The notes beneath the pieces are model-generated. The model had not been told where the DNA came from, did no database searches, and saw only the letters and a list, made by a program, of their open reading frames with translations. The position numbers were made by a program, and so were the translations under genes. A stretch of 41,916 nucleotides of DNA from the UHGV virus genome UHGV-0326656; one strand, given 5' to 3'. Positions within the stretch are counted from its first letter, which is position 1. Each line of letters starts with the position of its first letter. Shown piece after piece: positions 1 through 41,162 of the stretch. The DNA is from a virus.

Positions 1-150
1 CCTGGTAAAGCGGCGATTGGTCGTCTGAAAGGTGAGGAACTGGCGCAATATAATTTGTGGCTGGATTATCTGGACGCACTGGAACTGGTCGATACTTCCG
101 GTGCGCCAGATATTGAATGGCCTACTCCTCCGGCAGTTCAGGCCAGATGA
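1..150 (+). CDS. tail fibre assembly protein (Tfa), C-terminal part; 5' end lies outside the window
   Basis: Frame 1 is open to the TGA at 148-150; translation ...GRLKGEELAQYNLWLDYLDALELVDTSGAPDIEWPTPPAVQAR is nearly identical to the C-terminus of the 40731..41162 ORF. Confidence 0.8.
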   Translation, partial: PGKAAIGRLKGEELAQYNLWLDYLDALELVDTSGAPDIEWPTPPAVQAR

Positions 151-724
151 CATCCGGCGCGGTGCTGGTATCCGTTGCCGTCACCGCGTCAATGTAATCC
201 AGCACAGCGTTTAGTCGGGTGGTTTCTGTCTGCGTCAGCTTCCTCCCGGCCTGCAATTTCAGTTGAATCAGACTAATGGAAGCCATTGCAGTATCAATTA
301 GTGACTGTCGCTGTACTTCTGCCGCTTTTACTGCGGCACCATATTGTGCCTCAGTATCTGTCACCCATTTCTCACCATCCCATTTATCGTATGGCGTTAA
401 TGGGACGATAGTGGTTGTATTTTCAGGGTAATCACCCGGAGCTGTGATTTCTTTTGATTCTCCTGTTTCAGTGCTATAGACAAATTCACCACGATGGTCT
501 GGCACATATATCCACGAGTTAAAATCTTCAGAACGGCAAATTGCATAACCAGTTTTGTATGGGCCAGGGGCATCTAAACAGGAACATGCCGGAATGCCGA
601 CACCAATGGCAAGATATTCTGTTGATGTGGAAATATATTCCCGCGTTTCACCATCATAATTATAAACGGTTATGTCTCCCGCTTTTATGGCAATGAGTTC
701 GTTATTTAAGACAACTTTATTCAT
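122..724 (-). CDS. tail fibre assembly protein, inverted-orientation copy (Tfa')
   Basis: 200-aa ORF about 85% identical to the 41134..41736 ORF; convergent with the + strand Tfa, as in Mu G / e14 P invertible segments. Confidence 0.8.
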   Translation of the reverse strand: MNKVVLNNELIAIKAGDITVYNYDGETREYISTSTEYLAIGVGIPACSCLDAPGPYKTGYAICRSEDFNSWIYVPDHRGEFVYSTETGESKEITAPGDYPENTTTIVPLTPYDKWDGEKWVTDTEAQYGAAVKAAEVQRQSLIDTAMASISLIQLKLQAGRKLTQTETTRLNAVLDYIDAVTATDTSTAPDVIWPELPEE

Positions 725-1179
725 CAGGCAGCCCTCACGATATAATTAAAGGCAATGTTACGAGGTCGGTTTTCGTTTGCAGTTGGAACAACTCTGGAAG
801 CATCGAATGTTACTCGCTTTGCATAACCACCTTTAATTGAATCCGATGAAGCATCTCCGATGACGCTGGTTGTAAAAACGCCAGAATCAGAAGGATAGGT
901 ATTGAACCTGACATCCACTAATGCACCAATTATATTTCGAATGGCATCGCCCTGTGATGAAAGCAAGCTACGGTTAGTATCTATTCCTCTTCCGTCATCC
1001 CAGCCACGAATAAACTCACCACGTAAATCTGGCAATTTATTTGTCGGATAAACTTTTGCCAGTTCCGGATACTCTTCGGCAGAAAAAGGCGCACCATTGC
1101 ATTTCAGCCAGCCTGTTGGCGGAGTGGCTGAAGGCCACGGAACAGGCACACCAACGGGTAATGCCGAACCTTCTCCCAA
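724..1179 (-). CDS. alternative tail fibre C-terminal (receptor-binding) segment; no ATG of its own, opens inside the crossover site
   Basis: Frame opens with TTG inside the gix-like site; Gly/Pro-rich tip sequence ending NIAFNYIVRAA; stop overlaps the Tfa' start. Confidence 0.6.
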   Translation of the reverse strand: MGEGSALPVGVPVPWPSATPPTGWLKCNGAPFSAEEYPELAKVYPTNKLPDLRGEFIRGWDDGRGIDTNRSLLSSQGDAIRNIIGALVDVRFNTYPSDSGVFTTSVIGDASSDSIKGGYAKRVTFDASRVVPTANENRPRNIAFNYIVRAA

Positions 1180-1196
1180 ACCAACCTTTTAGAAAA
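1171..1196. other. hix/gix-type 26-bp invertase crossover site
   Basis: TTCTCCCAAACCAACCTTTTAGAAAA matches the remembered hixL site at about 20 of 26 positions; lies between the variable fibre segment and the invertase start; its reverse complement shares core TT and half-site GGTTTGGGAGAA with 40359..40384. Confidence 0.6.
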
Positions 1197-1249
1197 TGCA
1201 GTAATTCCGCTCAGATGGCATGATCCAAGCTTTTTAAGGGGCATTTCTC

Positions 1250-1360
1250 ATGCTCATCGGTTATGTACGTGTGTCAACAAATGACCAGAACACCGCATTG
1301 CAACGAAACGCACTGGAGTGCGCAGGATGTGAACTGATATTCGAGGATAAGATCAGCGGC
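1250..1360 (+). pseudogene. serine DNA invertase (Pin/Gin/Hin family), 5' fragment of 37 codons
   Basis: MLIGYVRVSTNDQNTALQRNALECAGCELIFEDKISG matches the invertase N-terminus including the catalytic-Ser motif; similarity stops after codon 37. Confidence 0.7.
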
Positions 1361-1588
1361 AGATGGGGGGGCAGTCAGGGGGTTGCCCAGCTCAATTTGT
1401 TTGATGAAAACGCGCCACGCCCGGGTAGTGAGAAACTGATGGAAGTGTTGGATCACCTCAACGCCAAAGACGGCAGGGGAACCTTGTACTTTACCAGGCA
1501 GGGTATCCAGCCACAGTTGCAGATGAAACGCGAGATGCTTTCACCTAGATATACAACGAGATATGATGACATATTAAGAGTTAAATAG
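1361..1588 (+). pseudogene. UmuC-like Y-family polymerase subunit, 3' fragment fused in frame to the invertase remnant
   Basis: Tail ...QLNLFDENAPRPGSEKLMEVLDHLNAKDGRGTLYFTRQGIQPQLQMKREMLSPRYTTRYDDILRVK resembles the UmuC/MucB C-terminus as remembered; no upstream umuC body. Confidence 0.5.
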
Positions 1589-1607
1589 AACATCAGCGAG
1601 GTGATAA

Positions 1608-2603
1608 ATGAAAGGGATATATTATGAGAATACTCGAACCTCTATACCGGGGTGGATATCAAACCTTCATGAAACTCAAAGGTTTGGTTACGCTTATGAA
1701 ACAAGTACTCACTTTGTTCATTTATATGGTAAAGCTGAACCTTTTAATGTCATATCAGTTGGCCTTACCGCAATACAAGGTAAAAGTGGGACTCTAAATG
1801 ATTGGGTTATAAATACATTTGGAGCAACTAACATCCAAACATTACAAAATGATATCGGACATGTTGTTGAAGGTGTCTGGAGACCATCTTTATATTATAG
1901 CGATGACATTCAAGGTGCGTTGTTAGTTGATCCGTTCGAGAAAATGTCGTCAGGACAAGCTCTGCGCAATCTTATTAATAAACTCGATGAATTATTTTTG
2001 TACATTGAGCCAAGCATCACAGGTCTGAAAGCATATAGCCATAAATGCAGGGAGCTATTAATTTTGGCTTGTACAGAAGTTGAGAATCAGTGGGTGTCAC
2101 TGATAAAAAAAACAAACCTAAATAATGTAGGGGCTAGATATACAACTAGGGACTATGTACGGCTTGCAGATAAATGTTTTTTAAAAGAATACAAGGTGAA
2201 TTTTAAAAATTACTCAGGCTTAAGAGATTTCACACCATTTTTATCTTGGGTTCCGACTGCCTCTACTGGCTCTTTACCTTGGTACGATGCTTATAATGGA
2301 ACTAAGCATGATAGGGAAGCAGGTTTTAATCTCGCATCATTGGAGAATGTGATGGATGCCTTATCTGCTTGTATAGTATTGTATTGTGTTAAATATGGAC
2401 CTTATGATTTGGTGTCTGGTGGGGATCTGCTTTCAGGAACGTTTAACGAGCATTTTTCTCTTAGTTTCATAAATAGTGATAAAAGTAGCTATTACGTTCC
2501 CGAATTGAATTTTAACGCAAACGCAATAACAGACTTGTGTGTGATTGACTGTTATAGAGAAAAACTCAACAAAGCATGGGTTACAGAACCTCTTGTTTTA
2601 TAG
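1608..2603 (+). CDS. hypothetical protein, 331 aa, AT-rich orphan (candidate accessory/defence gene)
   Basis: Long ORF with GAGGTGA ribosome-binding site 7 nt upstream; markedly AT-rich versus flanks; no family recognised. Confidence 0.65.
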   Translation: MKGIYYENTRTSIPGWISNLHETQRFGYAYETSTHFVHLYGKAEPFNVISVGLTAIQGKSGTLNDWVINTFGATNIQTLQNDIGHVVEGVWRPSLYYSDDIQGALLVDPFEKMSSGQALRNLINKLDELFLYIEPSITGLKAYSHKCRELLILACTEVENQWVSLIKKTNLNNVGARYTTRDYVRLADKCFLKEYKVNFKNYSGLRDFTPFLSWVPTASTGSLPWYDAYNGTKHDREAGFNLASLENVMDALSACIVLYCVKYGPYDLVSGGDLLSGTFNEHFSLSFINSDKSSYYVPELNFNANAITDLCVIDCYREKLNKAWVTEPLVL

Positions 2604-2841
2604 GTAGTATTAATTCAGCACCTTGATTTTTTGTATTTCCCACGGCACGCGTCACGGCGTGCCAGATAAACGTGTCGGCAGACGCTGTACCCTTAGCAAC
2701 AATCTCCTCCACCACTCTACCTACGACATTCTGCCGTATCCACTCACGAGCTGCTTCCGGTGATAGCACCAGCGGCCGGCGATCATGAATATCTACCAGC
2801 CCTTTATCCGCAGCAGTAGTTACAATCAGGAACCCCTCAGC
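2581..2841 (-). pseudogene. yedK: SRAP (YedK-like abasic-site peptidase), C-terminal part, separated from N-terminal part by IS3
   Basis: Minus-strand frame reads AEGFLIVTTAADKGLVDIHDRRPLVLSPEAAREW...GNTKNQGAELI, matching the YedK C-terminus; in frame with 4100..4525 once IS3 and one AGC copy are removed. Confidence 0.8.
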
Positions 2842-2897
2842 TGATCTTACCCAGCAATAGTGGACACGCAGCTAAGTGAGTAAACTCTCAGTCAGAG

Positions 2898-3206
2898 GTG
2901 ACTCACATGACAAAAACAGTATCAACCAGTAAAAAACCCCGTAAACAGCATTCGTCTGAATTTCGCAGTGAAGCCCTGAAGCTTGCTGAACGCATCGGTG
3001 TTACTGCCGCAGCCCGTGAACTCAGCCTGTATGAATCACAGCTCTACAACTGGCGCAGTAAACAGCAAAATCAGCAGACGTCTTCTGAACGTGAACTGGA
3101 GATGTCTACCGAGATTGCACGTCTCAAACGCCAGCTGGCAGAACGGGATGAAGAGCTGGCTATCCTCCAAAAGGCCGCGACATACTTCGCGAAGCGCCTG
3201 AAATGA
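2898..3206 (+). CDS. insE: IS3 transposase OrfA (HTH subunit)
   Basis: [42 protein letters not shown]... recognised as IS3 OrfA. Confidence 0.9.
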
Positions 3207-4069
3207 AGTATGTCTTTATTGAAAAACATCAGGCTGAGTTCAGCATCAAAGCAATGTGCCGCGTGCTCCGGGTGGCCCGCAGCGGCTGGTATACGTGGTG
3301 TCAGCGGCGGACAAGGATAAGCACGCGTCAGCAGTTCCGCCAACACTGCGACAGCGTTGTCCTCGCGGCTTTTACCCGGTCAAAACAGCGTTACGGTGCC
3401 CCACGCCTGACGGATGAACTGCGTGCTCAGGGTTACCCCTTTAACGTAAAAACCGTGGCGGCAAGCCTGCGCCGTCAGGGACTGAGGGCAAAGGCCTCCC
3501 GGAAGTTCAGCCCGGTCAGCTACCGCGCACACGGCCTGCCTGTGTCAGAAAATCTGTTGGAGCAGGATTTTTACGCCAGTGGCCCGAACCAGAAGTGGGC
3601 AGGAGACATCACGTACTTACGTACAGATGAAGGCTGGCTGTATCTGGCAGTGGTCATTGACCTGTGGTCACGTGCCGTTATTGGCTGGTCAATGTCGCCA
3701 CGCATGACGGCGCAACTGGCCTGCGATGCCCTGCAGATGGCGCTGTGGCGGCGTAAGAGGCCCCGGAACGTTATCGTTCACACGGATCGTGGAGGCCAGT
3801 ACTGTTCAGCAGATTATCAGGCGCAACTGAAGCGGCATAATCTGCGTGGAAGTATGAGCGCAAAAGGTTGCTGCTACGATAATGCCTGCGTGGAAAGCTT
3901 CTTTCATTCGCTGAAAGTGGAATGTATCCATGGAGAACACTTTATCAGCCGGGAAATAATGCGGGCAACGGTGTTTAATTATATCGAATGTGATTACAAT
4001 CGGTGGCGGCGGCACAGTTGGTGTGGCGGCCTCAGTCCGGAACAATTTGAAAACCAGAACCTCGCTTAG
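3203..4069 (+). CDS. insF: IS3 transposase OrfB (DDE catalytic subunit)
   Basis: 288-aa ORF overlapping orfA, with integrase-core motifs (...[10 protein letters not shown]..., ...HTDRGGQY...). Confidence 0.9.
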
Positions 4070-4099
4070 GCCTGTGTCCATATTACGTGGGTAGGATCA

Positions 4100-4525
4100 A
4101 GCTTCATCGCCACGTTCAAATGGTGTGCTGCCAATAGCGGCCATGAATATAGGCTGGCCGTCAGCCCTGCGAATGAAGTAGGGCTGTTTTATAATGCCTT
4201 CGCGCTTCCATTCGAACCAACCATCAGCAAAGCAAATTGCACGTCCATGCAACCAGAGAGGTTTGAACATTCGGCTGGTGGCCGCAGTTTCTGAGCGTGC
4301 GTTAATCAGCGGAGGTTTATTCCACCATCCGGGAGCGAATCCCCAGATAACAGGATCGAGGTGCAACTGTTCGTCGCGTTCGCTCAAAAGCAGAACTTTG
4401 GTACCGGGTGCAACGTTGAATCGTCCAATTGGTTCTGGAACGTATGGGATGTCACGCTCAGCTTCTTCTGATAGGAGGGCAAGATAGTCTTCACGCGTCA
4501 TTGATTGGGCGAAACGTCCGCACAT
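4100..4525 (-). pseudogene. yedK: SRAP (YedK-like), N-terminal part, truncated by IS3
   Basis: MCGRFAQSMTREDYLALL...FMAAIGSTPFERGDEA has the Cys2 catalytic start of SRAP/YedK; the frame runs into the IS3 end. Confidence 0.85.
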
Positions 4526-4566
4526 AGAAACCTCCAGTCACCAGACTGAAAGTATAGGGTAGGGAT

Positions 4567-4590
4567 ACAAAAAAGCCCGCATAAGCGGGC
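4567..4590 (-). terminator. rho-independent terminator-like hairpin
   Basis: On the minus strand GCCCGC-TTAT-GCGGGC followed by TTTTTT, between the ssrA fragment and the SRAP start. Confidence 0.45.
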
Positions 4591-4721
4591 TTTCATGTCA
4601 CTCGGGAGCCGCGGCTCCTTTACGTATCCTTTTTTGTCTCCTCACCGTCTAGTCGGTGTCCTGCTGAGACTGCTAACTTCCTGTTTTTGTTAGTGCTGTC
4701 CTGGCACTGTCCAATCATGAT

Positions 4722-4749
4722 TGGTGGAGCTGGCGGGAGTTGAACCCGC
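4722..4749 (-). other. ssrA: 28-nt 3' end of tmRNA (ssrA) ending CCA; att-core-like relic
   Basis: Minus strand reads GCGGGTTCAACTCCCGCCAGCTCCACCA, identical to the ssrA 3' terminus as remembered; upstream sequence does not continue ssrA. Confidence 0.7.
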
Positions 4750-5040
4750 AGACACGTCGTATGCAAGAACTTGCTGCGGCTGGATGGTGGACTTTCGATA
4801 GTGCGAGTATTGAATGATGTCCAGCCGTTATTGATTTTACGTATTTTTTGCATGAAAAGATTAGCACCTCATCCCACCGCTCCTCCATGATTTTACACCA
4901 CTGTCTCTAGAGCTCTGTGTGCCAGAAGCGGAAGTTCATACCTCTAAGTGGATATTTTGTTAAAATATGCCATCAAAATCCTTGCTACCTCATGGTTGAC
5001 AGTGATAAAAGTTGCACAAATTACTGAGAGAGAAATTACA

Positions 5041-5478
5041 ATGAGTGGAGATACCTCTGAGTTTCCTAATAAACTTCCCAGAAAGCCAATTGGTTGGCGT
5101 GAAGAATATAGTGATTTTACAGGTAGTATTATATTCTATATGATATTCCCGTTGCTTCCATTACTTTTTGAGTCAATTAACACAGGAACTCACCCTTCAA
5201 TACAATCATTAACAATTACTGCATCAATATACTCTTTTTCCATCGGTGTATCTTCTCGAGATAAAGCTATTTTTTGCTTAGGGATTTTTTGTGGTTTCAT
5301 TCTCGCTTATCTTTACGGTAAAGTTAGTGAGCCAAAAGTTATTATATATACCTGGTACTATGTAGTTACGGTGATACTACTGGCTGTAATATTTATATTT
5401 CATCTTCTCGAACGATTTAATAAACACGTGGTAGAATGTGAACCTGTTTTCTCCTTTAAGTTTACGAGAGGTATGTAA
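5041..5478 (+). CDS. hypothetical multi-pass membrane protein (alternative start at 4948)
   Basis: AT-rich ORF with several hydrophobic segments (FYMIFPLLPLLF, IFCLGIFCGFILAYLY, VVTVILLAVIFIF); perfect -35 TTGACA about 40 nt upstream; stop overlaps the next start (TAATG). Confidence 0.6.
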   Translation: MSGDTSEFPNKLPRKPIGWREEYSDFTGSIIFYMIFPLLPLLFESINTGTHPSIQSLTITASIYSFSIGVSSRDKAIFCLGIFCGFILAYLYGKVSEPKVIIYTWYYVVTVILLAVIFIFHLLERFNKHVVECEPVFSFKFTRGM

Positions 5479-5945
5479 TGGAGGATATTATATTTATGTA
5501 TGCTGGGTTGATAGTGTCTTCTTTAGCGGCAATTGTAGGCTTAGCTACATCTATCATGCATACTCGTAAAAAAGTTAAAGCTAATGAAGAGCTTGCAACT
5601 GAAATGGCAAAGAGCTTTAGTGAGCTTGAATCTATCAATAAAAGCATAGGGGATTTGGAAGCGACAATTAAAAGGATAGATGAAGATGAATTAAAGTTAA
5701 GAATAGCAATTGAATCTTTAAAGGAAATGACTTCTGATGAAAAAAAAGAATCTAGGGATATGTTGAAAAACATCGTTAATGATGAGGTGTTCATTAAAGT
5801 TCTTCTCGAAAGCTATAAAAAACTGGATACCCAGTCAAAGAAGGAGATTTATTTGACTTTTTCCAAGTCGACAGATAGAGGCCTTTATCGATATATAAAA
5901 AGAATAGCTTCATCAGTACTCGATAACTTAATGGTTAAAATATAA
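5478..5945 (+). CDS. hypothetical protein with N-terminal transmembrane helix and charged coiled-coil-like C-terminal region
   Basis: AT-rich; MEDIIFMYAGLIVSSLAAIVGLATSIM then K/E-rich heptad-like sequence; translationally coupled to the upstream ORF. Confidence 0.65.
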   Translation: MEDIIFMYAGLIVSSLAAIVGLATSIMHTRKKVKANEELATEMAKSFSELESINKSIGDLEATIKRIDEDELKLRIAIESLKEMTSDEKKESRDMLKNIVNDEVFIKVLLESYKKLDTQSKKEIYLTFSKSTDRGLYRYIKRIASSVLDNLMVKI

Positions 5946-6500
5946 ATGCGTGCGCGCGAGATACAATTTCTCGCGCATTGTGTAACCGGCGACAAAACCC
6001 TGTTATCATTATAGCGACCCGTTTAGATGGGCCATTTGTGCCCCAACAGCTTCTGGGTATAGATTTCCTCGGCCCTGTATAGATACTTTGCTAAAGAGTA
6101 TTTTAATGGTATTTTGCTTACGTACCATTCTTCTAACGAATGTCTGCCTTATCCTGTGAGCTGCCTTCGCTCAGCATTGGCCTGTTTCTCGTTGATTTAT
6201 ATACTGCGACACTAACATAGGCGGATATGTCCGCTCCTCGCTCATAACAGACATTCACTACAGTTATGGCAGAAAGGTATGCATGCTGGGTGGGGAAAGT
6301 ATGAAGGAAAAGAAAACTGCTGCGCTGTTTGTCGTCACGTTTATCTTCATTGGCTATGCAAGTCATAATACAAGGTGGGACAAAACTGAGACACATAAGG
6401 CCTCACAATGGCTTGCAAGGCTTTACATGTTTTGATGTGGTGGGACGTGTGAGCGCAGTGTTGATGGGGTAATGCTTTGAATTAGAAGCGGATTCTTATA

Positions 6501-6546
6501 ATTCGTAATGCGAAGGTCGTAGGTTCGACTCCTATTATCGGCACCA
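6501..6546 (+). other. thrW: 3' 46 nt of tRNA-Thr(CGU) (anticodon loop to CCA); prophage att core, not a complete tRNA
   Basis: ATTCGTAATGCGAAGGTCGTAGGTTCGACTCCTATTATCGGCACCA matches the tRNA-Thr(CGU) 3' part; upstream 30 nt cannot form acceptor/D arms; integrase gene starts 15 nt downstream on the opposite strand. Confidence 0.75.
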
Positions 6547-6560
6547 TTTAAATCAATAAG

Positions 6561-7724
6561 TTACACATCATTAGTACCTTCCTTATTTTTTGACTGGGAC
6601 AAATTTGGGACCGATGGGTTCAGGATCGAGTCTATTTGCCGTGCGTGCTCGGTAAGGTGATTAGGTGCAAGGTGAGCATATCGACGAACCATTTCGATAG
6701 ACTCCCAGCCTCCCATTTCCTGTAACACTGACAACGGGACTCCGGCTTGAACCAGCCAACTTGCCCAGGTGTGTCTCAGGTCGTGAAATCTGAAATCATC
6801 AATACCAGCCCGTCTCAGCGCCGCTTTCCAGGCTGTGTTTGCGTCATACCGCATCTTCCTTACTGTTGGCGCTTTCGTTCCGTCTGGTTTGGTACAGCTT
6901 TCCTTGTACACAAATACCCAACGGTGATGATTCCCGATTTGTTTTTTCAAAACGCGACATGCAGTATCATTCAGCGCAACGCCGATTGCGCGGTTTGATT
7001 TACTCTCTTCCGGGTTTATCCATGCCACTCGGCGCTGCATATCTATTTGTTGCCATTCAAGGTTGATGATGTTCGAGCGTCTTAAGCCTGTTGCCAGTGC
7101 AAATTCAACAACAGACTTTAATGGCTCCGGACATTCATCAATCAGCCTTTGTGCTTCATGGGGCTCCAGCCAGCGGATCCGTTTATTCTTTGGTTGAGGC
7201 ACTTTAATAATTGGTGCCTTATCCAGCATTTTCCATTCACGCTCTGCGGCTCTTAGTAGGGCCTTTATAAATGAAAGATGCGTAGCCTTCGTTGCAACGG
7301 ACGCTGGTTTTGGCGTGTATTCTGGAACAGGTTTCCCTTTTTTTCTGCATGCTTCTGCCCTGAGTTTCCAGTTTTCCTCATGACGCCGGTTCGTCATTTT
7401 CTGCATTGCTGAATAAATTTTTGATTCAGTAATGTCTCTTAGTTGCATTCCTGCGAAATGTTGAAGCCAGAATCCGATCCGGCTTTTGTCATCGTCCAGT
7501 GATTTTTTATGTGCTTTCTCTTCAAGCCACCTGACACATGCTTCCTCGAACGTTATATCAGGTATTTCACCAAGTTTACTGACCCGCCATGCTTCAGCCT
7601 TTAGCTTGTCATGGAGTTCTGTCGCCTGCCTTTTGTCCTTTGTTCCAAGAGACTGTTTAAATCTTTTACCGTTCGGCAATGTGAAACTGGCGTACCATAT
7701 TTCACCTCTGCGGAAGAGTGACAT
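6561..7724 (-). CDS. int: tyrosine-type phage integrase
   Basis: 387 aa with C-terminal catalytic region ...[39 protein letters not shown]; adjacent to tRNA fragment. Confidence 0.95.
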
Positions 7725-7951
7725 TTTCTTTCCTCTGTTATGCCATCACCCGCGCTCACCTGGACAGTATGCAGCGGAGACTGAAGAGCCGCAATGCAGG
7801 CTTGTCGTGTTGTGAGGTAAGGAGATTTATTCTTAGTGGGATCTTTGCGTGTTGCCTGAAGACGCCCTGTGCGTATCCAGTTAATAGCAGTCGGTCTGGA
7901 TATCTTGAGAAAATGACAGGCCTCATCGAGTGTGAGGCTGTATGGCTCCAT
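7601..7951 (-). CDS. xis: excisionase / AlpA-like HTH DNA-binding protein
   Basis: [31 protein letters not shown]... typical Xis/AlpA HTH; directly upstream of and overlapping int; C-terminal extent uncertain. Confidence 0.6.
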
Positions 7952-8295
7952 TATTTCACCTCTTGCTGTGACATTGTTGAAAAACGGATACCAGCTCGTT
8001 GCTGCCAGACGATCCAACCGAGAGTCATATCCCATGCCATGTATTCGTTATCGCCGTTTTTTGCTCTCCGACGATCGACTGTTTTACCGAAACGCTTTTC
8101 CATAAATAATTCATAGGCTGCGCGTTCATCTGGCTCAACTTCCAGAGATGCCAGTGCAATCCGTGCCAGTTCTAAATCATTTTCAAGCTCAGCGCGAATC
8201 TCAGCGAATGCACTCTGTGTTAAGGCGAACTCAATGCTCTGCACTTTATTCCGTGCGCGCTCAAGCAGTGCATGGTAGTTAATTTCGGTTGTCAT
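7951..8295 (-). CDS. hypothetical phage protein
   Basis: 114-aa ORF in the leftward early operon, stop overlaps xis start. Confidence 0.6.
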   Translation of the reverse strand: MTTEINYHALLERARNKVQSIEFALTQSAFAEIRAELENDLELARIALASLEVEPDERAAYELFMEKRFGKTVDRRRAKNGDNEYMAWDMTLGWIVWQQRAGIRFSTMSQQEVK

Positions 8296-14092: not shown

Positions 14093-14447
14093 ACAGTTTA
14101 ACAACACACTACCGTCGCTCGCAACTGATTGCGCTTCCTGTACCGGGTGGAAAAGCGAAGGTGGAGTATTGCTATGCAGTAAATGTACCAGGTGGCAGGG
14201 TAATTGTAACCCACAGCTTTGCAGAGTGGGCTGTGGGTGATTTTAACCGGCAAAAGGAGACAGTCCTTTGCGACAAGTTAACCGCTGGTTCAAAGATCAC
14301 TACGGAGTACCCGTCAGAGTCATTCGTTGGGAGCCGGAAACACAACGGGTTATCTACCTCCGTGAAGGCTATGAGCATGAGTGCTTCAGCCCGCTCGAAC
14401 AGTTTCGTCGTAAATTCAGGGAAATAGAGGTCGGTCATGAGCACTAA
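14089..14447 (+). pseudogene. small phage gene apparently split by a frameshift at an A-run (frame change near 14252-14255)
   Basis: ATG at 14089 with GGAG ribosome-binding site; after about 55 codons the product turns Ser-rich and low-complexity, while the other frame from 14247 encodes protein-like ...[50 protein letters not shown]... ending at 14447. Confidence 0.4.
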
Positions 14448-15378
14448 ATTAACCGGCTATGTATGGGATGGTTGCGCAGCGTCAGGCATGAAATTATCCA
14501 GCGTGGCAATTATGGCCCGCCTGGCTGATTTCAGTAATGACGAAGGTGTGTGCTGGCCATCAATTGAAACCATTGCCCGTCAGATTGGCGCGGGGATGAG
14601 TACCGTCAGGACGGCTATCGCACGGCTGGAAGCAGAAGGCTGGTTAACGCGTAAGGCGCGTCGCCAGGGTAACCGCAATGCGTCGAATGTTTATCAGCTT
14701 AACGTTGCGAAGCTTCAGGCAGCGGCATTTTCTCAACTGTCAGATTCTGACCCGTCAAAATCTGACGCATCAAAATCTGACCCGTCAAAATTTGATGCGT
14801 CGAAATCTGGCAAAAAAGCGGGTTTTCACCCGTCAGAATCTGGCGGGGATCCGTCAGTAAAATCAAAACATGATCCGTCAGATAAAAAACCTTCTCGTCC
14901 GGACGCTTCGCAACCGGACACGCAGACGGATGAACAGGATTTTTTAACTCGCCATCCTGATGCGGTTGTATTCAGCCCTAAAAAGCGCCAGTGGGGAACG
15001 CAGGATGATTTGACCTGCGCACAGTGGCTCTGGAAAAAAATCATCGCCCTGTACGAGCAAGCCGCCGAATGTGACGGCGAGGTGGTTCGTCCCAAAGAAC
15101 CGAACTGGACAGCCTGGGCAAACGAAATTCGCCTAATGTGTGTGCAGGATGGTCGTACTCACAAACAAATCTGCGAGATGTACAGCCGCGTCAGCCGAGA
15201 TCCGTTCTGGTGCCGTAACGTGCTCAGCCCGTCGAAGCTGCGGGAAAAATGGGATGAGCTTTCCCTGCGCTTATCACCGTCCGTCAGCACGTACACCGAA
15301 AAACGCGAAGACCCGTACTTCAAATCCAGTTACGACAACGTGGACTACAGCCAGATCCCGGCAGGATTCAGGGGGTGA
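14437..15378 (+). CDS. replication initiator (lambda O-like, winged-helix N-terminus) with internal iterons
   Basis: N-terminal winged-helix region (LSSVAIMARLADFSNDEGVCWPSIETIARQIGAGMSTVRTAIARLEAEGWL); central SKSD-type peptide repeats encoded by the DNA iterons. Confidence 0.75.
   Translation: MSTKLTGYVWDGCAASGMKLSSVAIMARLADFSNDEGVCWPSIETIARQIGAGMSTVRTAIARLEAEGWLTRKARRQGNRNASNVYQLNVAKLQAAAFSQLSDSDPSKSDASKSDPSKFDASKSGKKAGFHPSESGGDPSVKSKHDPSDKKPSRPDASQPDTQTDEQDFLTRHPDAVVFSPKKRQWGTQDDLTCAQWLWKKIIALYEQAAECDGEVVRPKEPNWTAWANEIRLMCVQDGRTHKQICEMYSRVSRDPFWCRNVLSPSKLREKWDELSLRLSPSVSTYTEKREDPYFKSSYDNVDYSQIPAGFRG
14738..14890. repeat. about eight direct 15-bp iterons (CCGTCAAAATCTGAC-like); candidate phage replication origin
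   Basis: Units at 15-bp period: CCGTCAAAATCTGAC, GCATCAAAATCTGAC, CCGTCAAAATTTGAT, GCGTCGAAATCTGGC, CCGTCAGAATCTGGC, CCGTCAGTAAAATC, CCGTCAGATAAAAAA. Confidence 0.7.
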
Positions 15379-34487: not shown

Positions 34488-35018
34488 ATGAAAGGCTATA
34501 TCACAGCAAGTGTAATTCTTGGAGCAGCGGCTATTTTTTCATCTCTCATAATCTCTGGCAACATCTCCTTTAAAGATGAACATATTATTCAGTTATCTGG
34601 AGGAGCCATAAAACTTGGTGATGTTTATAAAGAAAATAAATTGATAAGTGCAAAGATTATTTTTCCAGATAATCAGGGTGAACAGATTCTTGTTGTCGAC
34701 GGCAATCCTGAAAACTTTAAGGAGGATTTTCAGGAGAAATTAAATAAAGTAATAAAAACTTTAAATGCGTCAAAGAAAAAAGATGAAGAGAAAGTTAGCC
34801 TGGATAATTTAAGTGTTATTGAAGAGTCTAAACTAGAGCTCGTTTCTGCGGTGCGTTACTCTGCTCAGTATGTTCCTATGTTTACTCTGACGCTGGACAA
34901 AAAAGAAATTACCATGCCTAAAAATACGGTAATATTTCCATTTGCCAGCGATGAAACAGCTAAGTATTTAAATGAACAACAGCAAAAGTATAAAGATTCG
35001 TTGTTTCTGACTCGCTAA
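34488..35018 (+). CDS. hypothetical membrane-anchored protein, 176 aa, AT-rich moron
   Basis: N-terminal signal/anchor (ITASVILGAAAIFSSLIISG); own promoter and terminator; interrupts the tail gene cluster. Confidence 0.65.
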   Translation: MKGYITASVILGAAAIFSSLIISGNISFKDEHIIQLSGGAIKLGDVYKENKLISAKIIFPDNQGEQILVVDGNPENFKEDFQEKLNKVIKTLNASKKKDEEKVSLDNLSVIEESKLELVSAVRYSAQYVPMFTLTLDKKEITMPKNTVIFPFASDETAKYLNEQQQKYKDSLFLTR

Positions 35019-35036
35019 TTAATAAAATTCATTACA

Positions 35037-35066
35037 AGGCCACCTTCTAATAGGTGGCTTTTTTAT
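35037..35066 (+). terminator. rho-independent terminator after the tail-module moron
   Basis: GCCACC-TTCTAATA-GGTGGC followed by TTTTTTATTTT. Confidence 0.8.
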
Positions 35067-35079
35067 TTTCGGAGTGTAT

Positions 35080-36408
35080 ATGACGTGGAAAGACAGGCTT
35101 CAGGATGCGTCATTTCGAGGTGTGCCGTTTAAGGTTGAAGAAGAAAGTGCGGGAACCGGTCGCCGTGTGGAAACACATGAATACCCGAACCGCGACAAGC
35201 CCTATACCGAAGATCTGGGAAAAGTCACTTTCCGCCCGTCCATCACAGCTTATGTGGTGGGAGATGACTGCTTTGACCAGCGCGATCGCCTGATTGAAGC
35301 GCTGAATAAACCAGGTCCCGGCACGCTTGTCCACCCGACATATGGTGAGCTGAAAGTCTGTGTTGACGGGGAAGTTCGGGTCAGCACATCGAAAAGTGAA
35401 GGGCGTATTGTCCGCTTTGACCTGAAGTTTGTCGAAGCGGGAGAACTCTCTTACCCCACATCAGGCGTGGCGACGGCGCAGACGCTGATGTCATCCTGTT
35501 CTGCACTGGATGACTGCATCAGTGACAGTTTCAGTAGTTTCAGTATCGATGGCGTGGCAGATTTTGTGCAGAACGACGTCGTCGGTAATGCCAGCACAAT
35601 GCTTGGGTATGTTTCTGATGCGATGAAAGTGGTGGATTCTGCCGTATCGGATGCCGCCAGGCTGTTGCAGGGGGATATCTCGGTACTTCTGCCGCCGCCA
35701 TCGTCAGGCAAAAATTTCGTTGAGCAGGTGCAGAAAATGTGGCGTACCGGGAAACGCCTTTATGGTAACGCCAGCGACCTGGTCACCATGATCAAAACGC
35801 TTTCCGGTGTCAGCCTCGGCAGCGATCTGCAACCGCGCGGCGTCTGGAAAACGGACAGTAAAACCACCGCCACGGCTACGCAGCAGCGTAACGTGGTTGC
35901 CAGCACCCTTCGTACGACCGCAATCAGCGAAGCGACGTATGCCGTCACCCGATTGCCTGCGCCAACAACTTCCGCGGTGATGCAGAATGCCGCAGTGGGG
36001 CAGGCAACAACACCTGCGCAGAGCACTGGCTGGCCTTCCGTCACGCATCCGGCACTGAACAATGCACCGGCGGTGAAAAACACAGTTGACCTGCCGACGT
36101 GGGAAGAACTGACTGACATTCGCGACACACTGAATACGGCAATTGATAAGGAGTTGTCCCGTACAACCAGTGATGCGCTGTTTCTGGCGCTGCGCCGGGT
36201 GAAAGCAGATCTGAATGCGGATATCAACACGCGCCTTGAACAGTCTGCACGGATCATTCAGCGCGCACCGGATGAGGTTTTACCCGCGCTGGTGCTGGCG
36301 GCGACCTGGTTTGATAACGCGGCGCGTGACGCGGACATTATTCGGCGTAATGCCATTACGCATCCCGGCTTTGTGCCGGTGATCCCTCTGAAGGTGCCAG
36401 TGCAATGA
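35080..36408 (+). CDS. DNA circulation protein (Mu N / gp43-like)
   Basis: MTWKDRLQDASFRGVPFKVEEESAGTGRRVETHEYPNRD... characteristic N-terminus; GGAG ribosome-binding site. Confidence 0.85.
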   Translation: MTWKDRLQDASFRGVPFKVEEESAGTGRRVETHEYPNRDKPYTEDLGKVTFRPSITAYVVGDDCFDQRDRLIEALNKPGPGTLVHPTYGELKVCVDGEVRVSTSKSEGRIVRFDLKFVEAGELSYPTSGVATAQTLMSSCSALDDCISDSFSSFSIDGVADFVQNDVVGNASTMLGYVSDAMKVVDSAVSDAARLLQGDISVLLPPPSSGKNFVEQVQKMWRTGKRLYGNASDLVTMIKTLSGVSLGSDLQPRGVWKTDSKTTATATQQRNVVASTLRTTAISEATYAVTRLPAPTTSAVMQNAAVGQATTPAQSTGWPSVTHPALNNAPAVKNTVDLPTWEELTDIRDTLNTAIDKELSRTTSDALFLALRRVKADLNADINTRLEQSARIIQRAPDEVLPALVLAATWFDNAARDADIIRRNAITHPGFVPVIPLKVPVQ

Positions 36409-37484
36409 ACGACAATGTCACGCTACGGGTAAATGGCCGGGAGTGGAATGGCTGGACATCGGTGCGCATCGGTGCCGGTATTGAACGGCTGGCGCGGGAT
36501 TTCAGTGTGGAGATCACCCGCCAGTGGCCGGGTGATGAGGGTATCACCACGCTTCAGCCGCGCATTAAAAACGGTTCAAAAGTGGAGGTGCTGATTGGTG
36601 ATGAGCTGGTGATCACCGGCTGGGTGGAGGCGACGCCCGTTCGTTACGATGCCCGTTCGGTCAGCACCGGTATTGCCGGACGCAGTCTGACCGCTGACCT
36701 GATTGACTGTGCAGCCGAACCGACACAGTTTAACGGACGATCGCTGGTACAGATTGCGCAGGCGCTTGCTGCGCCTTTCGGCATTGAGGTGGTGAACAAC
36801 GGTGCGCCGTCGGGTGTTATTCCTGACATCCAGCCTGATCACGGCGAAACGGTGATTGAGGTGATCAACAAAATACTCGGTCAGCAGCAGGCACTGGCTT
36901 ACGACGACCCGCACGGCAGGCTGGTGATTGGCGGTATTGGCTCAACTCGGGCACATACCGCGCTGGTACTTGGGGAAAACATCCTTTCCTGCGATACGGA
37001 GAAGAGTATCCGGGAGCGGTTTTCAGTTTACCAGGTGGCGGGGCAGCGTGCCGGAAACGACGATGATTTCGGTGAGGCCACCACCACCGCGCTGCGGGCC
37101 CGCACAGAGGACGCATTTATTGCCCGTTACCGTCCGATGTATATCAGGCAGACAGGGCAGGCCACGGGGGCAGGCTGTATTGCGCGTGCTGACTTTGAAG
37201 CCCGACAACGGGCGGCGCGGACGGATGAAACCACTTATGTGGTGCAGGGCTGGCGACAGGGTAACGGTACGCTGTGGCAGCCCAACCAGCGGGTGATTGT
37301 CTTCGATCCGGTCTGTGGTTTCGACAATACCGAACTGCTTGTTTCGGAAGTCACGTTTACTCAGGACCAGAACGGCACCCTGACGGAAATCCGTGTCGGC
37401 CCGCCTGATGCTTATCTGCCTGAACCCGAAGATCCCGGCGCGCGGAAAAAGAAAAAAGCCAGAGTACAGGAGGACCCGTTCTGA
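36405..37484 (+). CDS. baseplate hub protein (Mu P / gp44-like)
   Basis: 359 aa in conserved Mu-like order. Confidence 0.8.
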   Translation: MNDNVTLRVNGREWNGWTSVRIGAGIERLARDFSVEITRQWPGDEGITTLQPRIKNGSKVEVLIGDELVITGWVEATPVRYDARSVSTGIAGRSLTADLIDCAAEPTQFNGRSLVQIAQALAAPFGIEVVNNGAPSGVIPDIQPDHGETVIEVINKILGQQQALAYDDPHGRLVIGGIGSTRAHTALVLGENILSCDTEKSIRERFSVYQVAGQRAGNDDDFGEATTTALRARTEDAFIARYRPMYIRQTGQATGAGCIARADFEARQRAARTDETTYVVQGWRQGNGTLWQPNQRVIVFDPVCGFDNTELLVSEVTFTQDQNGTLTEIRVGPPDAYLPEPEDPGARKKKKARVQEDPF

Positions 37485-38032
37485 TGAGGGCGATTGAAGC
37501 CATGCAGCGACAACTTCTCGGCCTGATTGGGCGGGCCGTGGTGAAAAGCATCAGTGCCGGCACGAAATGTCAGACCGTGGATGTGTCCCTGATTGCCGGT
37601 GAACCCAAAGCCGGGGTTGAACATCTTGAACCCTACGGTTTTACCGCAAGGGCAAACAGCGGTGCGGAAGCGGTGGTGTTGTTTCCGGATGGCGACCGTT
37701 CTCATGCGGTGGTTGTTACGGTGTCGGACCGGCGCTACCGCCTGAAAGGGCTGCAGACGGGTGAGGTGGCTGTCTATGACGATCAGGGGCAGTCCGTGAC
37801 GCTGACCCGGGAGGGGATCGTGGTGGACGGTGCAGGTAAAACGATCACGTTTCGCAATTCACCTAAAGCACGTTTTGAAATGGACCTGGAAGTGACAGGA
37901 CAGGTGAAAGACCTGTGCGACTCCAGCGGCACTACCATGTCAGCGATGCGGCTTGCCTATAACGGGCATCGTCACAGAGAGAACGGTCAGGGCAGTAACA
38001 CCGACAAACCGGATAAAGCGATGGAGGCATGA
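37484..38032 (+). CDS. baseplate spike/assembly protein (Mu gp45, P2 V-like)
   Basis: 182 aa in conserved order. Confidence 0.75.
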   Translation: MRAIEAMQRQLLGLIGRAVVKSISAGTKCQTVDVSLIAGEPKAGVEHLEPYGFTARANSGAEAVVLFPDGDRSHAVVVTVSDRRYRLKGLQTGEVAVYDDQGQSVTLTREGIVVDGAGKTITFRNSPKARFEMDLEVTGQVKDLCDSSGTTMSAMRLAYNGHRHRENGQGSNTDKPDKAMEA

Positions 38033-38457
38033 TGGAACTGTGGCTGACGGTGAACGGTAAACGCACCTGCGCCAGCGCACCGCTGGATCCGCTGACCCGC
38101 GCCGTGGTGATTTCCCTGTTTACCTGGCGGCGGGCGGAGCCTGATGACAACGCCGACGTCCCGATGGGATGGTGGGGGGATACCTGGCCTGCGGTACAGA
38201 ATGACCGTTACGGCTCCCGACTGTGGCTGCTTCAGCGCAGCAAACTGACCAATCAGCTGGTGCAGACGGTAAGGGGGTATATCCGCGAATGCCTGCAATG
38301 GATGATTGATGACGGCGTGGTGTCCCGTATTGATCTGGATATCCGCCGCACCGGGATTAATGAGCTGGGTAACAGTATCACCCTCTGGCGTCGTGACGGA
38401 CCGGTAATGATTTCTTTTGATGATCTGTGGAGTGCGATAACGCATGGCGGACAGTGA
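38029..38457 (+). CDS. baseplate protein (Mu gp46, P2 W / T4 gp25-like)
   Basis: 142 aa in conserved order. Confidence 0.75.
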   Translation: MMELWLTVNGKRTCASAPLDPLTRAVVISLFTWRRAEPDDNADVPMGWWGDTWPAVQNDRYGSRLWLLQRSKLTNQLVQTVRGYIRECLQWMIDDGVVSRIDLDIRRTGINELGNSITLWRRDGPVMISFDDLWSAITHGGQ

Positions 38458-39502
38458 ATTTCAGCGCCCGACGCTGGCAGAAAATATCAGTATGCTCCGT
38501 AACGATTTATTCGCCAGGCTGGACGTCAGCGACACGCTCCGGCGCATGGATGAAGACGTGCGGGCAAAGGTGTATGCGGCGGCGCTGCATACGGTTTACG
38601 GGTACATCGATTATCTGGCAATGAACATTCTGCCTGACCTGTGCGATGAGTCCTGGCTGGCGCGACATGCTGCGATGAAACGGTGTCCGCGCAAGGGGGC
38701 CACGGCTGCCAGCGGGTATATGCGCTGGGAAGGTGTCAGCGATGGCCTGAAGGTGACCGCCGGGAGTGTTATTCAGCGCGATGACCTGGTGCAGTACACG
38801 GCAACTGCCGATGCAACCAGCTCCGGTGGTGTCCTGCGCGTGCCGATCGCCTGCTCAAATGCAGGCGCGGTCGGTAACGCTGACGACGGTACGGCATTAA
38901 TCCTGGTCACGCCGGTGAATGGTCTGCCGTCTTCCGGTGTGGCTGACACCCTGACAGGCGGATTTGATACTGAAGAGCTGGAAACGTGGCGCGCCCGCGT
39001 CATTGAGCGGTATTACTGGACGCCGCAGGGTGGGGCTGACGGGGACTATGTCGTCTGGGCTAAAGAAGTGCCCGGCATTACCCGCGCATGGACATACCGT
39101 CACTGGATGGGAACGGGAACTGTCGGTGTGATGATTGCCAGCAGTGACCTGATTAATCCCATTCCGGAAGAATCAACGGAAACGGCGGCAAGACAACATA
39201 TCGGGCCACTGGCCCCGGTGGCAGGCTCTGATTTGTATGTGTTCAGGCCGGTGGCACATACGGTGGATTTTCATATCCGCGTGACGCCGGACACACCGGA
39301 AATACGGGCTGCCATCACCGCGGAGTTGCGTTCGCTCCTGCTGCGTGATGGTTATCCGCAGGGAGAACTGAAGGTATCGCGTATCAGTGAGGCGATTTCC
39401 GGTGCGAACGGGGAATACAGCCATCAGTTGCTTGCACCGGCAGACAATATCTCCATTGCAAAAAATGAACTGGCGGTACTGGGGACGATTTCATGGACGT
39501 GA
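38444..39502 (+). CDS. baseplate J-like protein (Mu gp47)
   Basis: 352 aa in conserved order. Confidence 0.8.
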
Positions 39503-40077
39503 CAAACGATGATTACATCCGTCTGTTGTCGGCACTGTTGCCCCCCGGTCCGGCGTGGTCAGCCAGCGATCCGGCGATTGCCGGTGCGGCACCGTCATTA
39601 ACCCGCGTTCATCAGCGTGCGGATGCCCTGATGCGGGAGCTGGATCCGCGCACCACCACTGAACTGATAAACCGCTGGGAGCGTCTGTGCGGTCTGCCGG
39701 ATGAATGTATTCCCGCAGGGACACAGACCCTTCGCCAGCGTCAGCAACGGCTGGATGCGAAGGTTAACCTGGCGGGCGGCATCAACGAGAATTTTTATCT
39801 TGCACAGCTTGCTGCCCTGGGCAGACCAGACGCTACCATCACGCGATACGACAAAAGCACGTTCACCTGCTCATCGGCCTGTACTGACGCGGTGAATGCG
39901 CCGGAATGGCGGTATTACTGGCAGGTCAACATGCCAGCCGCCACAAACACCACCTGGATGACATGTGGCGATCCCTGTGATTCCGCGCTGCGTATCTGGG
40001 GCGACACCGTTGTCGAATGTGTGCTTAACAAACTCTGCCCGTCGCATACCTACGTAATTTTTAAATATCCGGAGTAA
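39493..40077 (+). CDS. tail protein (Mu gp48 / P2 I-like, YmfQ-type)
   Basis: 194 aa immediately upstream of the tail fibre gene. Confidence 0.7.
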
Positions 40078-40080
40078 TCC

Positions 40081-40728
40081 ATGCATCGTATAGACACGAA
40101 AACCGCGCAGAAGGATAAGTTCGGCGCGGGTAAGAACGGTTTTACCCGTGGTAACCCCCAGACAGGCACGCCTGCCACCGATCTGGATGATGACTACTTT
40201 GACATGTTGCAGGAAGAACTCTGCAGCGTGGTGGAGGCATCCGGTGCCAGCCTGGAGAAGGGGCGAAACGACCAGTTGCTTACCGCGCTTCGTGCTCTGC
40301 TGTTAAGCCGCAAGAATCCGTTTGGTGATATCAAATCGGATGGCACGGTGAAAATGGCTCTCGAAAACCTTGGTTTGGGAGAAGCGGCAAAACGGAATGT
40401 GGGGACAGGAGAAAATCAGGTACCGGATATGAACAACTTTGGTAACTCATTGACCGCCAATGGATACCAGAAATTACCTGGGGGGATGATTATTCAATGG
40501 GGGAGTTTTTCTGTCTCACCAACCGGAGGAAGTGTTGGAACAGTTGATATAACATTACCTGTAGCTTTCCCTGCTGCTTGTCGTTCGGTAAACGCTCTTA
40601 TTTCAACTAATGATCCTTCTGCCCGTTCTGTGGGCTTTGATATTGGAAGTACCAACAGAACTAAAATCAGATTTACTTACACTTCTGCTACAACAAATTC
40701 AATTTACTGGATGGCTGTGGGGTATTAA
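40081..40728 (+). CDS. tail fibre protein with conserved N-terminus and swappable C-terminal tip
   Basis: [24 protein letters not shown]... fibre N-terminus; composition turns AT-rich after the crossover site at 40359-40384. Confidence 0.8.
40359..40384. other. hix/gix-type crossover site inside the tail fibre gene (left boundary of the invertible segment)
   Basis: CTCTCGAAAACCTTGGTTTGGGAGAA: two 12-bp half-sites around a TT core; right half-site identical to the reverse complement of 1171-1196; encodes ...ALENLGLGE... at the constant/variable junction. Confidence 0.6.
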
Positions 40729-40730
40729 CT

Positions 40731-41162
40731 ATGGAAAAGACATATTATTTTAATCCCTCTGATTCGGGATTTTATATTTCACCAGATAGCCAAACCATTC
40801 CTGAGAACGCTACGAAAATAAACTTTACTATTTATTCTGAGTTCGCAGGAGTTGCATGGCCTGATGGTAAAATACTTGGTTCAGATAAAAATGGTTTTCC
40901 AGCATGGCAGGATGCGCCACCACTTACCAGCGAAGAATTAATCTCAATCGCTGAATCAAATAAACAGCGATTAGTTAATCAGGCCAACGAATACATGAAC
41001 AGTAAACAATGGCCTGGTAAAGCGGCGATTGGTCGTCTGAAAGGTGAGGAACTGGCGCAATATAATTTGTGGCTGGATTATCTGGACGCACTGGAACTGG
41101 TCGATACTTCCAGTGCGCCAGATATTGAATGGCCTACGCCTCCGGCAGTTCAGGCCAGATGA
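40731..41162 (+). CDS. tail fibre assembly protein (Tfa)
   Basis: 143 aa immediately after the fibre gene; C-terminal 50 aa shared with the inverted copy. Confidence 0.85.
   Translation: MEKTYYFNPSDSGFYISPDSQTIPENATKINFTIYSEFAGVAWPDGKILGSDKNGFPAWQDAPPLTSEELISIAESNKQRLVNQANEYMNSKQWPGKAAIGRLKGEELAQYNLWLDYLDALELVDTSSAPDIEWPTPPAVQAR

Follow-up and report, generated by a model that had tools for sequence, protein, structure and literature searches.

The virus genome UHGV-0326656 was studied as one stretch of 41,916 nucleotides (nt) of Escherichia-type DNA, hereafter the window, in which positions 1250-6546 form an island between a phage tail-fibre cassette and an attachment (att) core derived from the tRNA-Thr gene thrW. 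Two related prophages make up the window: of prophage A only the right end is present, and next comes prophage B, which is nearly complete. We found that the island is quite likely the slot in which a temperate phage of the SfV/e14 type carries its variable cargo (morons), built by module exchange. It is a genuine yet fairly ordinary patchwork, whose unusual part is a pair of fossil att sequences, one derived from the transfer-messenger RNA (tmRNA) gene ssrA and the other from the intergenic spacer between ykgJ and ecpE, and cargo modules appear to have been exchanged at this pair. The initial annotation of this DNA had listed, from left to right, an invertase 5' fragment fused to a umuC 3' fragment, a gene for a 331-aa protein (orf331), a yedK-like SRAP gene split by the insertion sequence (IS) IS3, a terminator-like hairpin, 28 nt of the ssrA 3' end, a pair of membrane-protein genes and the thrW core. 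All of these were present in that order. The pieces could be identified and bounded, and both the island and its breakpoints were found again in other genomes. The composite nature claimed for the stretch was borne out by GC contents that step from 32% to 60% between the modules and by breakpoints that recur at the same positions elsewhere.

Recurrence of the island and the thrW attachment module

A chimeric contig had been considered in the initial annotation, and genome comparison spoke against it. Positions 1-6564 recurred at 99.9-100% identity in many independent Escherichia assemblies, complete chromosomes among them, and the island is therefore no assembly artefact. Locus L019 matched these positions at 99.95%, IS3 included, and the same IS3 insertion was present in L020; IS3-free versions of the island occurred in L016, L021 and the genome TB06052. 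The 331-aa protein was indexed in 129 blocks of public assemblies. In all 10 orf331 loci that were inspected, an SfV-like prophage had the same island as its right end, with the chromosomal paoD region next to it in most (the island adjoined paoD in L014-L022). The genomic context of thrW became clear in TB06052, where a single prophage of ~41 kb runs in the order proA, intact thrW, int, then after further genes tail fibres, island and thrW core. The intact thrW sought in such a context thus stood at attL, and a partial core stood at attR beside the cargo, a lysogen arrangement that is not visible in the window.

The thrW core (6501-6546, plus strand) consists of 46 nt of the 3' part of the tRNA-Thr gene (ATTCGTAATGCGAAGGTCGTAGGTTCGACTCCTATTATCGGCACCA), occurs exactly and only once, and equals the published attP/attL/attR core of SfI, SfII, SfV, SfX, P22 and DLP12 (PMC3636060). 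It is preceded by an SfV-type P arm (6376-6500, plus strand) that is ~98% identical to those of SfV, SfI, SfII and SfIV. Directly beyond it lie, on the minus strand, the tyrosine integrase gene of prophage B (6561-7724; 381/387 identical to SfV Int; Pfam Phage_integrase, 164 bits) and a probable excisionase gene (7601-8035), which gave a weak TIGR01764 match and occupies the position of SfV xis. The initial annotation had taken the thrW core for a relic. Considering that the core is identical, that the P arm is kept and that the cognate integrase is full length, the core is, judged from its sequence, an intact SfV-type attP core and not a relic. In SfV the gene order is tail fibre, tfa, gtrV/B/A, attP, int and xis, and the gtr conversion cluster always lies directly upstream of attP (PMC3636060); therefore, the island is the SfV-family cargo slot with other contents.

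Because the core is followed by int and not by chromosomal DNA, the window holds either a tandem prophage junction or a circular or concatemeric phage form. The core-int junction is of the attP-like P-O-P' type and is most simply explained by two tandem prophages at thrW. Integration of SfI into the attL of a resident SfX has been described (PMC3306764), and in ET201 a tail fibre-cargo-int junction lies between duplicate prophages. The division of the window into prophages A and B follows from the int gene to the right of the core, from the tail genes at the far end and from the homologous window ends. Positions 34620-41768 (the last ~7 kb) matched baseplate and tail-fibre genes of related prophages; the inspection covered this segment and the part up to the int and xis genes, on either side of a middle part of ~27 kb. 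Positions 1-904 and 41013-41916 were homologous, with identities per 100 nt of 99, 98, 87, 95, 82, 79, 84 and 65% before the register was lost. This homology fits two near-identical tandem prophages with different tfa/stf alleles; alternatively, a branch in the assembly graph could have set both ends of the contig. A circular contig was rejected, since the terminal 904 nt differ (99% falling to 65%, then loss of register). Neither ARAGORN nor Rfam at its gathering threshold found an intact tRNA or tmRNA gene in the window.

Other copies of this end of the phage were also seen. In locus L034 (10361-12052, E. coli strain 204), a copy of window positions 6238-6548 with the thrW core was followed by a plus-strand tyrosine recombinase gene, and another element may be stacked there at the same att site. 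Window positions 6377-6472 matched K-12-type genomes at ~586 kb with 91.7% identity, a place that we take to be the right end of DLP12.

Attachment-derived blocks inside the island

The last 28 nt of ssrA are present exactly and once in the window (4722-4749, minus strand; 0 expected by chance), and Rfam returned them as a sub-threshold partial tmRNA match (E = 7.6e-5, E-value mode). The initial annotation had recognised this 28-mer correctly, but the homology is longer. A 411-bp probe around the 28-mer, spanning the ssrA-derived and ykgJ-ecpE-like blocks, showed that positions 4567-4749 (~183 bp) are ~90% identical to the ssrA 3' end and its downstream terminator flank in nearly all E. coli; sequence matching the probe occurred at a median of ~4 places per E. 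coli genome, and the match in K-12-type genomes reached only up to window position 4736. The flank copy (4567-4721, minus strand) contains an intrinsic terminator hairpin at 4571-4596 (-22.6 kcal/mol, z = -4.3, minus strand). The terminator-like hairpin that had been annotated is thus real, but it belongs to the ssrA-flank block; lying upstream of the SRAP gene, it is not the terminator of that gene.

The strain Esc12, which has a complete lambdoid prophage in ssrA with two copies of the core, was used for comparison. A flank of ~155 nt (~160 bp) follows both of these cores, beside the intact ssrA and at the partial far-end copy, so both the phage arm and the chromosome carry the flank. Positions 4567-4749 were 93% identical to the copy beside the intact ssrA and 90.5% identical to the far-end copy next to glaH, and the end of this prophage shows the same order as the window, namely tail fibre, pin remnant, cargo, flank and ssrA core. 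In all aligned copies the identity to ssrA stopped abruptly at 4749, and after the 28/28 matches nothing resembling the tmRNA body follows, which is what marks an att half-site and not random capture. The ssrA piece is, on this sequence pattern, att-derived, and its earlier reading as an att relic agreed both with the stop of identity 28 nt from the 3' end and with a flank like that of ssrA-integrating lambdoid phages. A candidate P arm of an ssrA-type attP at 4750-4947 was dropped, as that sequence matches the chromosomal ykgJ-ecpE spacer instead.

Directly adjoining the ssrA core is the second att-like block (~4750-4939), derived from the ykgJ-ecpE spacer. The genome survey set comprised 5426 complete E. 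coli genomes, and the sequence from ~4750 onwards matched 5393 of them; its location in K-12 is the ykgJ-ecpE intergenic spacer. The identity to that K-12 spacer was 85.6% over the first 90 nt and 78% over 174 nt, and the range was 78-87% when the K-12 chromosomal spacer and prophage copies were compared together. This spacer is the origin of 'attB-in-PP_2', a 96-bp att sequence on prophages (Nakamura et al. 2021, PMC8112680), which is used by lambda-like phages that integrate into prophages. According to the same study, prophage-borne copies of chromosome-derived attB show 81-87% identity, lie near prophage ends and are occupied by other phages, and several att-like sequences stand side by side and are common to different prophages; the three sites that it names do not include the ssrA-derived block. 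The 4750-4939 block has the homology to a chromosomal att locus that marks an attB-in-prophage copy, and no copy occupied by another phage was found among the ~10 loci inspected. The island therefore holds three att-derived sequences and not the two att relics first proposed, with the ykgJ-ecpE-derived block abutting the ssrA core. A second, more diverged ykgJ-ecpE-like copy was observed in the same cargo region of L002 (5034-5225), L004 (4694-4789), L012 (3446-3600) and L039 (2288-2479).

The joined ssrA and ykgJ-ecpE-like blocks were found in 194 of the 5426 complete genomes; in the prophages examined, they lay in the cargo of those at thrW (TB06052, A2 and D9), icd (FXCREC004), prfC (RIVM_C040348) and another site (EC21Z-144). 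Homology of the window to those prophages started or stopped at 4561-4569, 4651 or 4743, the cargo on the left side being unrelated, and two of the recurrent breakpoints (4567 and 4651) lie inside the ssrA flank. Recurrence of breakpoints at the blocks supports, short of proof, that the joined blocks may act as homology patches for cargo exchange. Copies without the ssrA block began to match at 4743, and the ssrA identity ends at 4749; the stretch shared at 4743-4749 is so short that joining by an integrase and illegitimate joining look alike in it.

Based on these observations, we infer that the island grew in steps, through recombination of prophages with each other and with other mobile DNA, and the events may be ordered as follows. 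By a deletion, 37 codons from the start of pin would have been joined to ~75 codons from the end of a foreign umuC; this umuC would have come in along with its downstream neighbour orf331. A YedK-type SRAP gene, convergent to orf331, would later have been knocked out by IS3. A ~183-bp half-att site of an ssrA-integrating lambdoid phage would have come to abut the ykgJ-ecpE-derived att-like block, and this pair, found in prophages at different chromosomal sites, would serve as a homology patch to the left of which cargo is exchanged. The AT-rich membrane-protein pair and a conserved att-proximal block would then lead into the intact SfV-type attP, followed by int and xis. The att-derived blocks would in this way be recombination linkers, and the cargo genes may serve in defence or exclusion.

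Several points weigh against this account. The island-core-int junction was absent from the complete genomes of the survey set, so that the window is the only source of the tandem arrangement, and the window ends could reflect an assembly-graph branch or circular phage DNA. No second recombinase gene or fragment was found in 1-6546 beside the ssrA site, and the ancestral specificity for ssrA is thus read only indirectly. The flank is nearly equally similar to its phage and chromosomal copies (93% vs 90.5%), so that capture from the chromosome is possible. As to the predicted roles of the cargo, PADLOC, Pfam and NCBIfam gave no useful match for orf331 or the membrane-protein pair.

The blocks can be explained in other ways. 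They might be functional secondary attachment sites ('attB-in-prophage') for ssrA- or ykgJ/ecpE-specific phages or satellites inside the prophage, as prophage-borne attB copies occupied by phages, ykgJ/ecpE included, have been described and the 4750-4939 block is homologous to that ykgJ/ecpE site (PMC8112680). In the ssrA block, 28 nt of the gene and 155 nt of flank have been kept with 90-93% identity, and the median number of places per E. coli genome is ~4. Given the K-12-type match up to 4736, the block would fit short-core ssrA integrases that use the sequence kept here. Nevertheless, no occupied ssrA-like block was seen in the inspected prophages (L001-L004, L011, L012 and L034), and the tmRNA sequence 5' of the 28 nt is gone, so integrases that cross over deeper in ssrA could not use the block; we consider this explanation unlikely. 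It is also improbable that the ssrA piece is chromosomal DNA brought along, as in specialised transduction, by aberrant excision of an ssrA-integrated ancestor, with an attR-type P-O-B' junction as the product. The phage-borne Esc12 copy by the intact ssrA matches best (93%), ahead of the copy on the glaH side (90.5%), and the order of tail fibre, pin', cargo, flank and core is that of the Esc12 phage arm, while the ~90% identity of 4567-4749 to the ssrA 3' end and flank of almost all E. coli speaks for such a capture, with a divergence that would fit a donor outside E. coli.

According to the initial annotation, dead ssrA and thrW relics marked the welding of two unrelated elements, and a mutagenic-repair module of umuDC and SRAP had been part of the ancestor. 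The 3' ends of both RNA genes are indeed there, as are a umuC 3' fragment and SRAP, and umuDC stands upstream of an orf331 homologue on the plasmid CP052288. We regard this proposal as quite unlikely, for it is contradicted at the thrW core, which is, judged from its sequence, a working attP core whose P arm and integrase are intact, there is a third att-derived block, SRAP has a different GC content, and SRAP was linked to neither umuC nor orf331 in the other loci examined. The ssrA block, moreover, is common to prophages at several att sites and was therefore inherited as a module and not created here. An assembly artefact, that is a chimeric contig, is very unlikely. The first and last 904 nt are related with a decay from 99% to 65%, as at an assembly-graph branch, and the island-core-int junction was missing from complete genomes, but positions 1-6564 are found at 99.9-100% in independent assemblies including complete chromosomes, IS3 has a clean 3-bp duplication, the junction is a bona fide SfV attP and tandem lysogeny at thrW is documented (PMC3306764).

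Two further suggestions, which we hold to be doubtful, are that the ~183-bp block with its attB-in-PP_2-like neighbour is an unreported prophage-borne landing pad of the ssrA type and, separately, that orf331 is a new single-gene abortive-infection determinant of the HEPN type. If true, the landing pad would let ssrA-targeting phages, satellites and islands nest in prophages while doubling as a homology patch for cargo swaps, and the orf331 determinant would be common to SfV-like phages, P2-like phages and plasmids. A usable attB in the ssrA block would extend the 'prophage-in-prophage' mechanism to a new site.

Cargo genes and the tail-fibre cassette

The leftmost cargo is an in-frame fusion, and the initial annotation had described it correctly. 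Its open reading frame (ORF; 1250-1588, 112 aa) matched Pfam Resolvase at residues 3-39 and DUF4113 at residues 61-111. The first part, pin' (1250-1360, plus strand), comprises the first 37 codons of a Pin/Gin-type serine invertase and is 95% identical to the invertase N-terminus in ET201; with only residues 1-37 left, it has neither a complete resolvase catalytic domain nor the C-terminal helix-turn-helix. The second part, umuC' (1361-1588, plus strand), comprises the last ~70-75 codons of a foreign UmuC, in frame with pin' (DUF4113, 73 bits), and only this C-terminal DUF4113 part, with no catalytic polymerase domain, is in the window. umuC' is a foreign 3' fragment: its nucleotide identity to E. 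coli umuC is only ~76%, and 57% of its amino acids are identical to the C-terminal part of a UmuC encoded by a Klebsiella plasmid. RefSeq marks both fragments in TB06052, as 'DNA-invertase, missing C-terminus' and as UmuC without its N-terminus. The 112-aa Pin'-UmuC' ORF keeps AQLNLFD, and gene callers annotate it in several genomes; QLNLF is presumably the beta-clamp-binding motif of UmuC.

orf331 follows (1608-2603, plus strand, 331 aa), with an N-terminal beta-rich domain and a HEPN-like helical domain that has the four-helix fold. The protein had been called an orphan, a label that no longer applies: 543 homologues were found, of nearly constant length (331-333 aa) and with many invariant polar residues, spanning Proteobacteria, Bacteroidota, Spirochaetes, Bacillota and Planctomycetes. 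Invariant positions include R148 and the T, K, H and R of T232-K233-H234-(D235)-R236; the canonical Rx4-6H motif was not recognised at the sequence level. A homologue with 59% identity is gene 1 of the P2-like phage SEN8, between cos and the portal gene, where the P2 defence hotspot lies (Rousset et al. 2022, PMC9122126). Because of this hotspot position and the invariant polar residues, a toxin or abortive-infection role would be the most likely function, and orf331 is a candidate gene of that kind. PADLOC gave no significant match to a catalogued defence system for orf331, SRAP or the membrane-protein pair, and a BFVD search for cargo function returned one uninformative fragment.

The Klebsiella plasmid CP052288 carries umuD-umuC and, downstream of them beyond 1.6 kb of IS debris, an orf331 homologue. 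This linkage lends some support to the view that umuC' and orf331 may have arrived together from a umuDC context. A conserved umuC-orf331-SRAP neighbourhood was rejected: in 8 distant genomic loci, phage SEN8 and plasmids, umuDC stood upstream on this one Klebsiella plasmid only, and SRAP nowhere. The deleted mutagenic-repair module of the initial annotation thus gains a second umuDC-orf331 linkage, but umuC' is foreign and SRAP is unlinked in the other contexts examined, which leaves it weakly supported.

The SRAP (YedK-type) gene is convergent to orf331 and, as first annotated, split by IS3. Its 3' part (2581-2841, minus strand; identified by reconstruction and Pfam SRAP) and its 5' part (4100-4525, minus strand; 142 codons, with the N-terminal Cys2) flank an element of 1258 bp (2842-4099, plus strand), which matching genomes annotate as IS3. 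The element contains orfA/orfB, ends in imperfect inverted repeats and is bordered by a target duplication of 3 bp (AGC at 2839-2841 and 4100-4102). In silico removal of IS3 and one AGC restored a 227-aa SRAP protein, identical at 227/227 positions to the intact TB06052 protein. The reconstructed protein starts MCGR and has a full-length SRAP domain with the catalytic Cys2 (Pfam SRAP, 165 bits; NCBIfam PRK09951, 430 bits against a cut-off of 349). In the window the gene is interrupted and so presumably inactive. Its GC content is different, and no linkage to orf331 or umuC was seen in any other locus examined.

The membrane-protein pair lies in a region of 32-35% GC. The first gene (4948-5478, plus strand; phrog_22626) encodes a predicted membrane protein with four hydrophobic segments, whose true start is probably the ATG at 5041. 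It matched no entry in Pfam, PADLOC or NCBIfam, its PHROG is of unknown function, and only 3 clusters were found among 5.8 billion proteins (78-99% identity, one of 145 aa). This protein is far more orphan-like than the 331-aa protein. The second gene (5478-5945, plus strand), whose start overlaps the preceding stop, encodes a protein with an N-terminal hydrophobic, probably transmembrane segment and a likely coiled coil, and it gave only weak coiled-coil-type matches. The hydrophobic segments, the transmembrane segment and the coiled coil of the pair were read by eye from the translations. The two genes always occurred together in the examined prophages at thrW (D9, A2, TB06052 and the inspected orf331 loci). 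IMG/VR contigs with the pair are predicted proviruses; L038 ends just before the thrW core and the others break inside the cargo, so the attP junction is not covered by them.

Between the pair and the core lies a conserved att-proximal block (6230-6435), 89-91% identical to the att region of phage 21 and to an icd-integrated prophage. It holds a 50-aa ORF (6283-6435), whose product has a hydrophobic segment, and, on the minus strand, a pair of terminator-like hairpins (6387-6421). The block is common to thrW-, icd- and phage-21-type prophages, and the hairpins are placed like lambda tI/sib, downstream of int across attP.

To the left of the island, prophage A has a tail-fibre inversion cassette, whose right end (122-1179) comprises a tail-fibre assembly gene (122-724, minus strand) and an alternative tail-fibre C-terminus (724-1179, minus strand), with Pfam matches to Caudo_TAP and Collar and in the gene order of the e14/SfV-like prophages of TB06052, A2 and others. 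Genomes with the same island carried the invertible segment in both orientations (L017, L018 and L022, locus 5462-7518, versus L014-L016 and window 122-1179). Gene spacing in the inverted L017, L018 and L022 suggests the same truncated 37-codon pin, in which case inversion would have been performed in trans by another invertase or would be older than the pin deletion. The sequence TTCTCCCAAACCAACCTTTTAGAAAA at 1171-1196, at the 5' end of the minus-strand tail-fibre C-terminus gene, resembles what we take to be the crossover sites of Hin/Gin/Pin; no second such site was present in the window within 3 mismatches. In prophage B, the tail genes were 98.8% identical over 7,149 nt to those of the island-bearing prophage of L019, and most of the mismatches probably fall in the terminal tfa region. 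An array of ~6 repeats of 15 nt (TCAAAATCTGAC-type) at 14725-14847, inside ORF 14437-15378 of prophage B, looks like the replication-origin iterons of a lambdoid O-type gene.

Comparison with known systems

The candidate phage-exclusion cargo of the island would be the HEPN-like orf331 family and the nearly orphan membrane-protein pair. In this respect the island resembles the lambda b region and the P2 cos-proximal hotspot (Rousset et al. 2022, PMC9122126), non-essential variable segments by att or cos that collect accessory and defence genes, and the P2-type hotspot of phage SEN8 holds an orf331 homologue. Unlike in the P2 hotspot, no island gene matched a catalogued defence system. The closest counterpart by position is the gtrABC slot of the Shigella phages SfV, SfI, SfII, SfIV and SfX, which lies in the same place, from the tail-fibre assembly genes to attP, with an identical 46-nt core, a P arm ~98% identical and an Int 98% identical; tandem integration was also reported there. 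In contrast to that slot, the island has no gtr or oac genes, and its cargo consists of pin'::umuC', the HEPN-like orf331, an IS3-disrupted SRAP gene, the membrane-protein pair and att-derived sequences from other loci.

As for the ssrA-integrating lambdoid prophages (Esc12 and 2014C-3599), they share with the island the ssrA 3' end, a terminator flank of ~155 nt, cargo, a pin remnant and tail fibres, but the island keeps neither the rest of the tmRNA gene, nor the other arm, nor a cognate integrase. The core measures 28 nt in the window, as against 27/28 plus 5 more matching nt (33 nt, one mismatch) in Esc12. Like attB-in-PP_1/2/3 (PMC8112680), the island carries chromosome-derived att-like sequence of ~80-87% identity near a prophage end, its 4750-4939 block comes from the same ykgJ-ecpE spacer as attB-in-PP_2, and its blocks stand side by side and are common to prophages. 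It differs in that the carrier is an SfV-like myovirus-tailed prophage at thrW and not a lambdoid prophage of Shiga toxin-producing E. coli (STEC) with effector loci, that the adjoining ssrA block is not a named site, and that no integrated phage was observed in either block.

These comparisons have consequences for prophage annotation. A tRNA or tmRNA 3' fragment within a prophage need not be a dead relic, nor need it mark a prophage boundary, and ssrA-like fragments, being common in E. coli prophages, can mislead the att-based delimitation of prophages. The island is a well-bounded case of temperate phages remodelling their att-side compartment, in which att-derived sequences stay behind as scars, and the recurrent breakpoints suggest that such scars are recombination joints for the exchange of accessory genes. 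It belongs to a known kind, a moron slot shaped by modular exchange with att sequences of the type described by Nakamura and colleagues, and only the ssrA-derived att-like block and the uncharacterised cargo genes are mildly novel.

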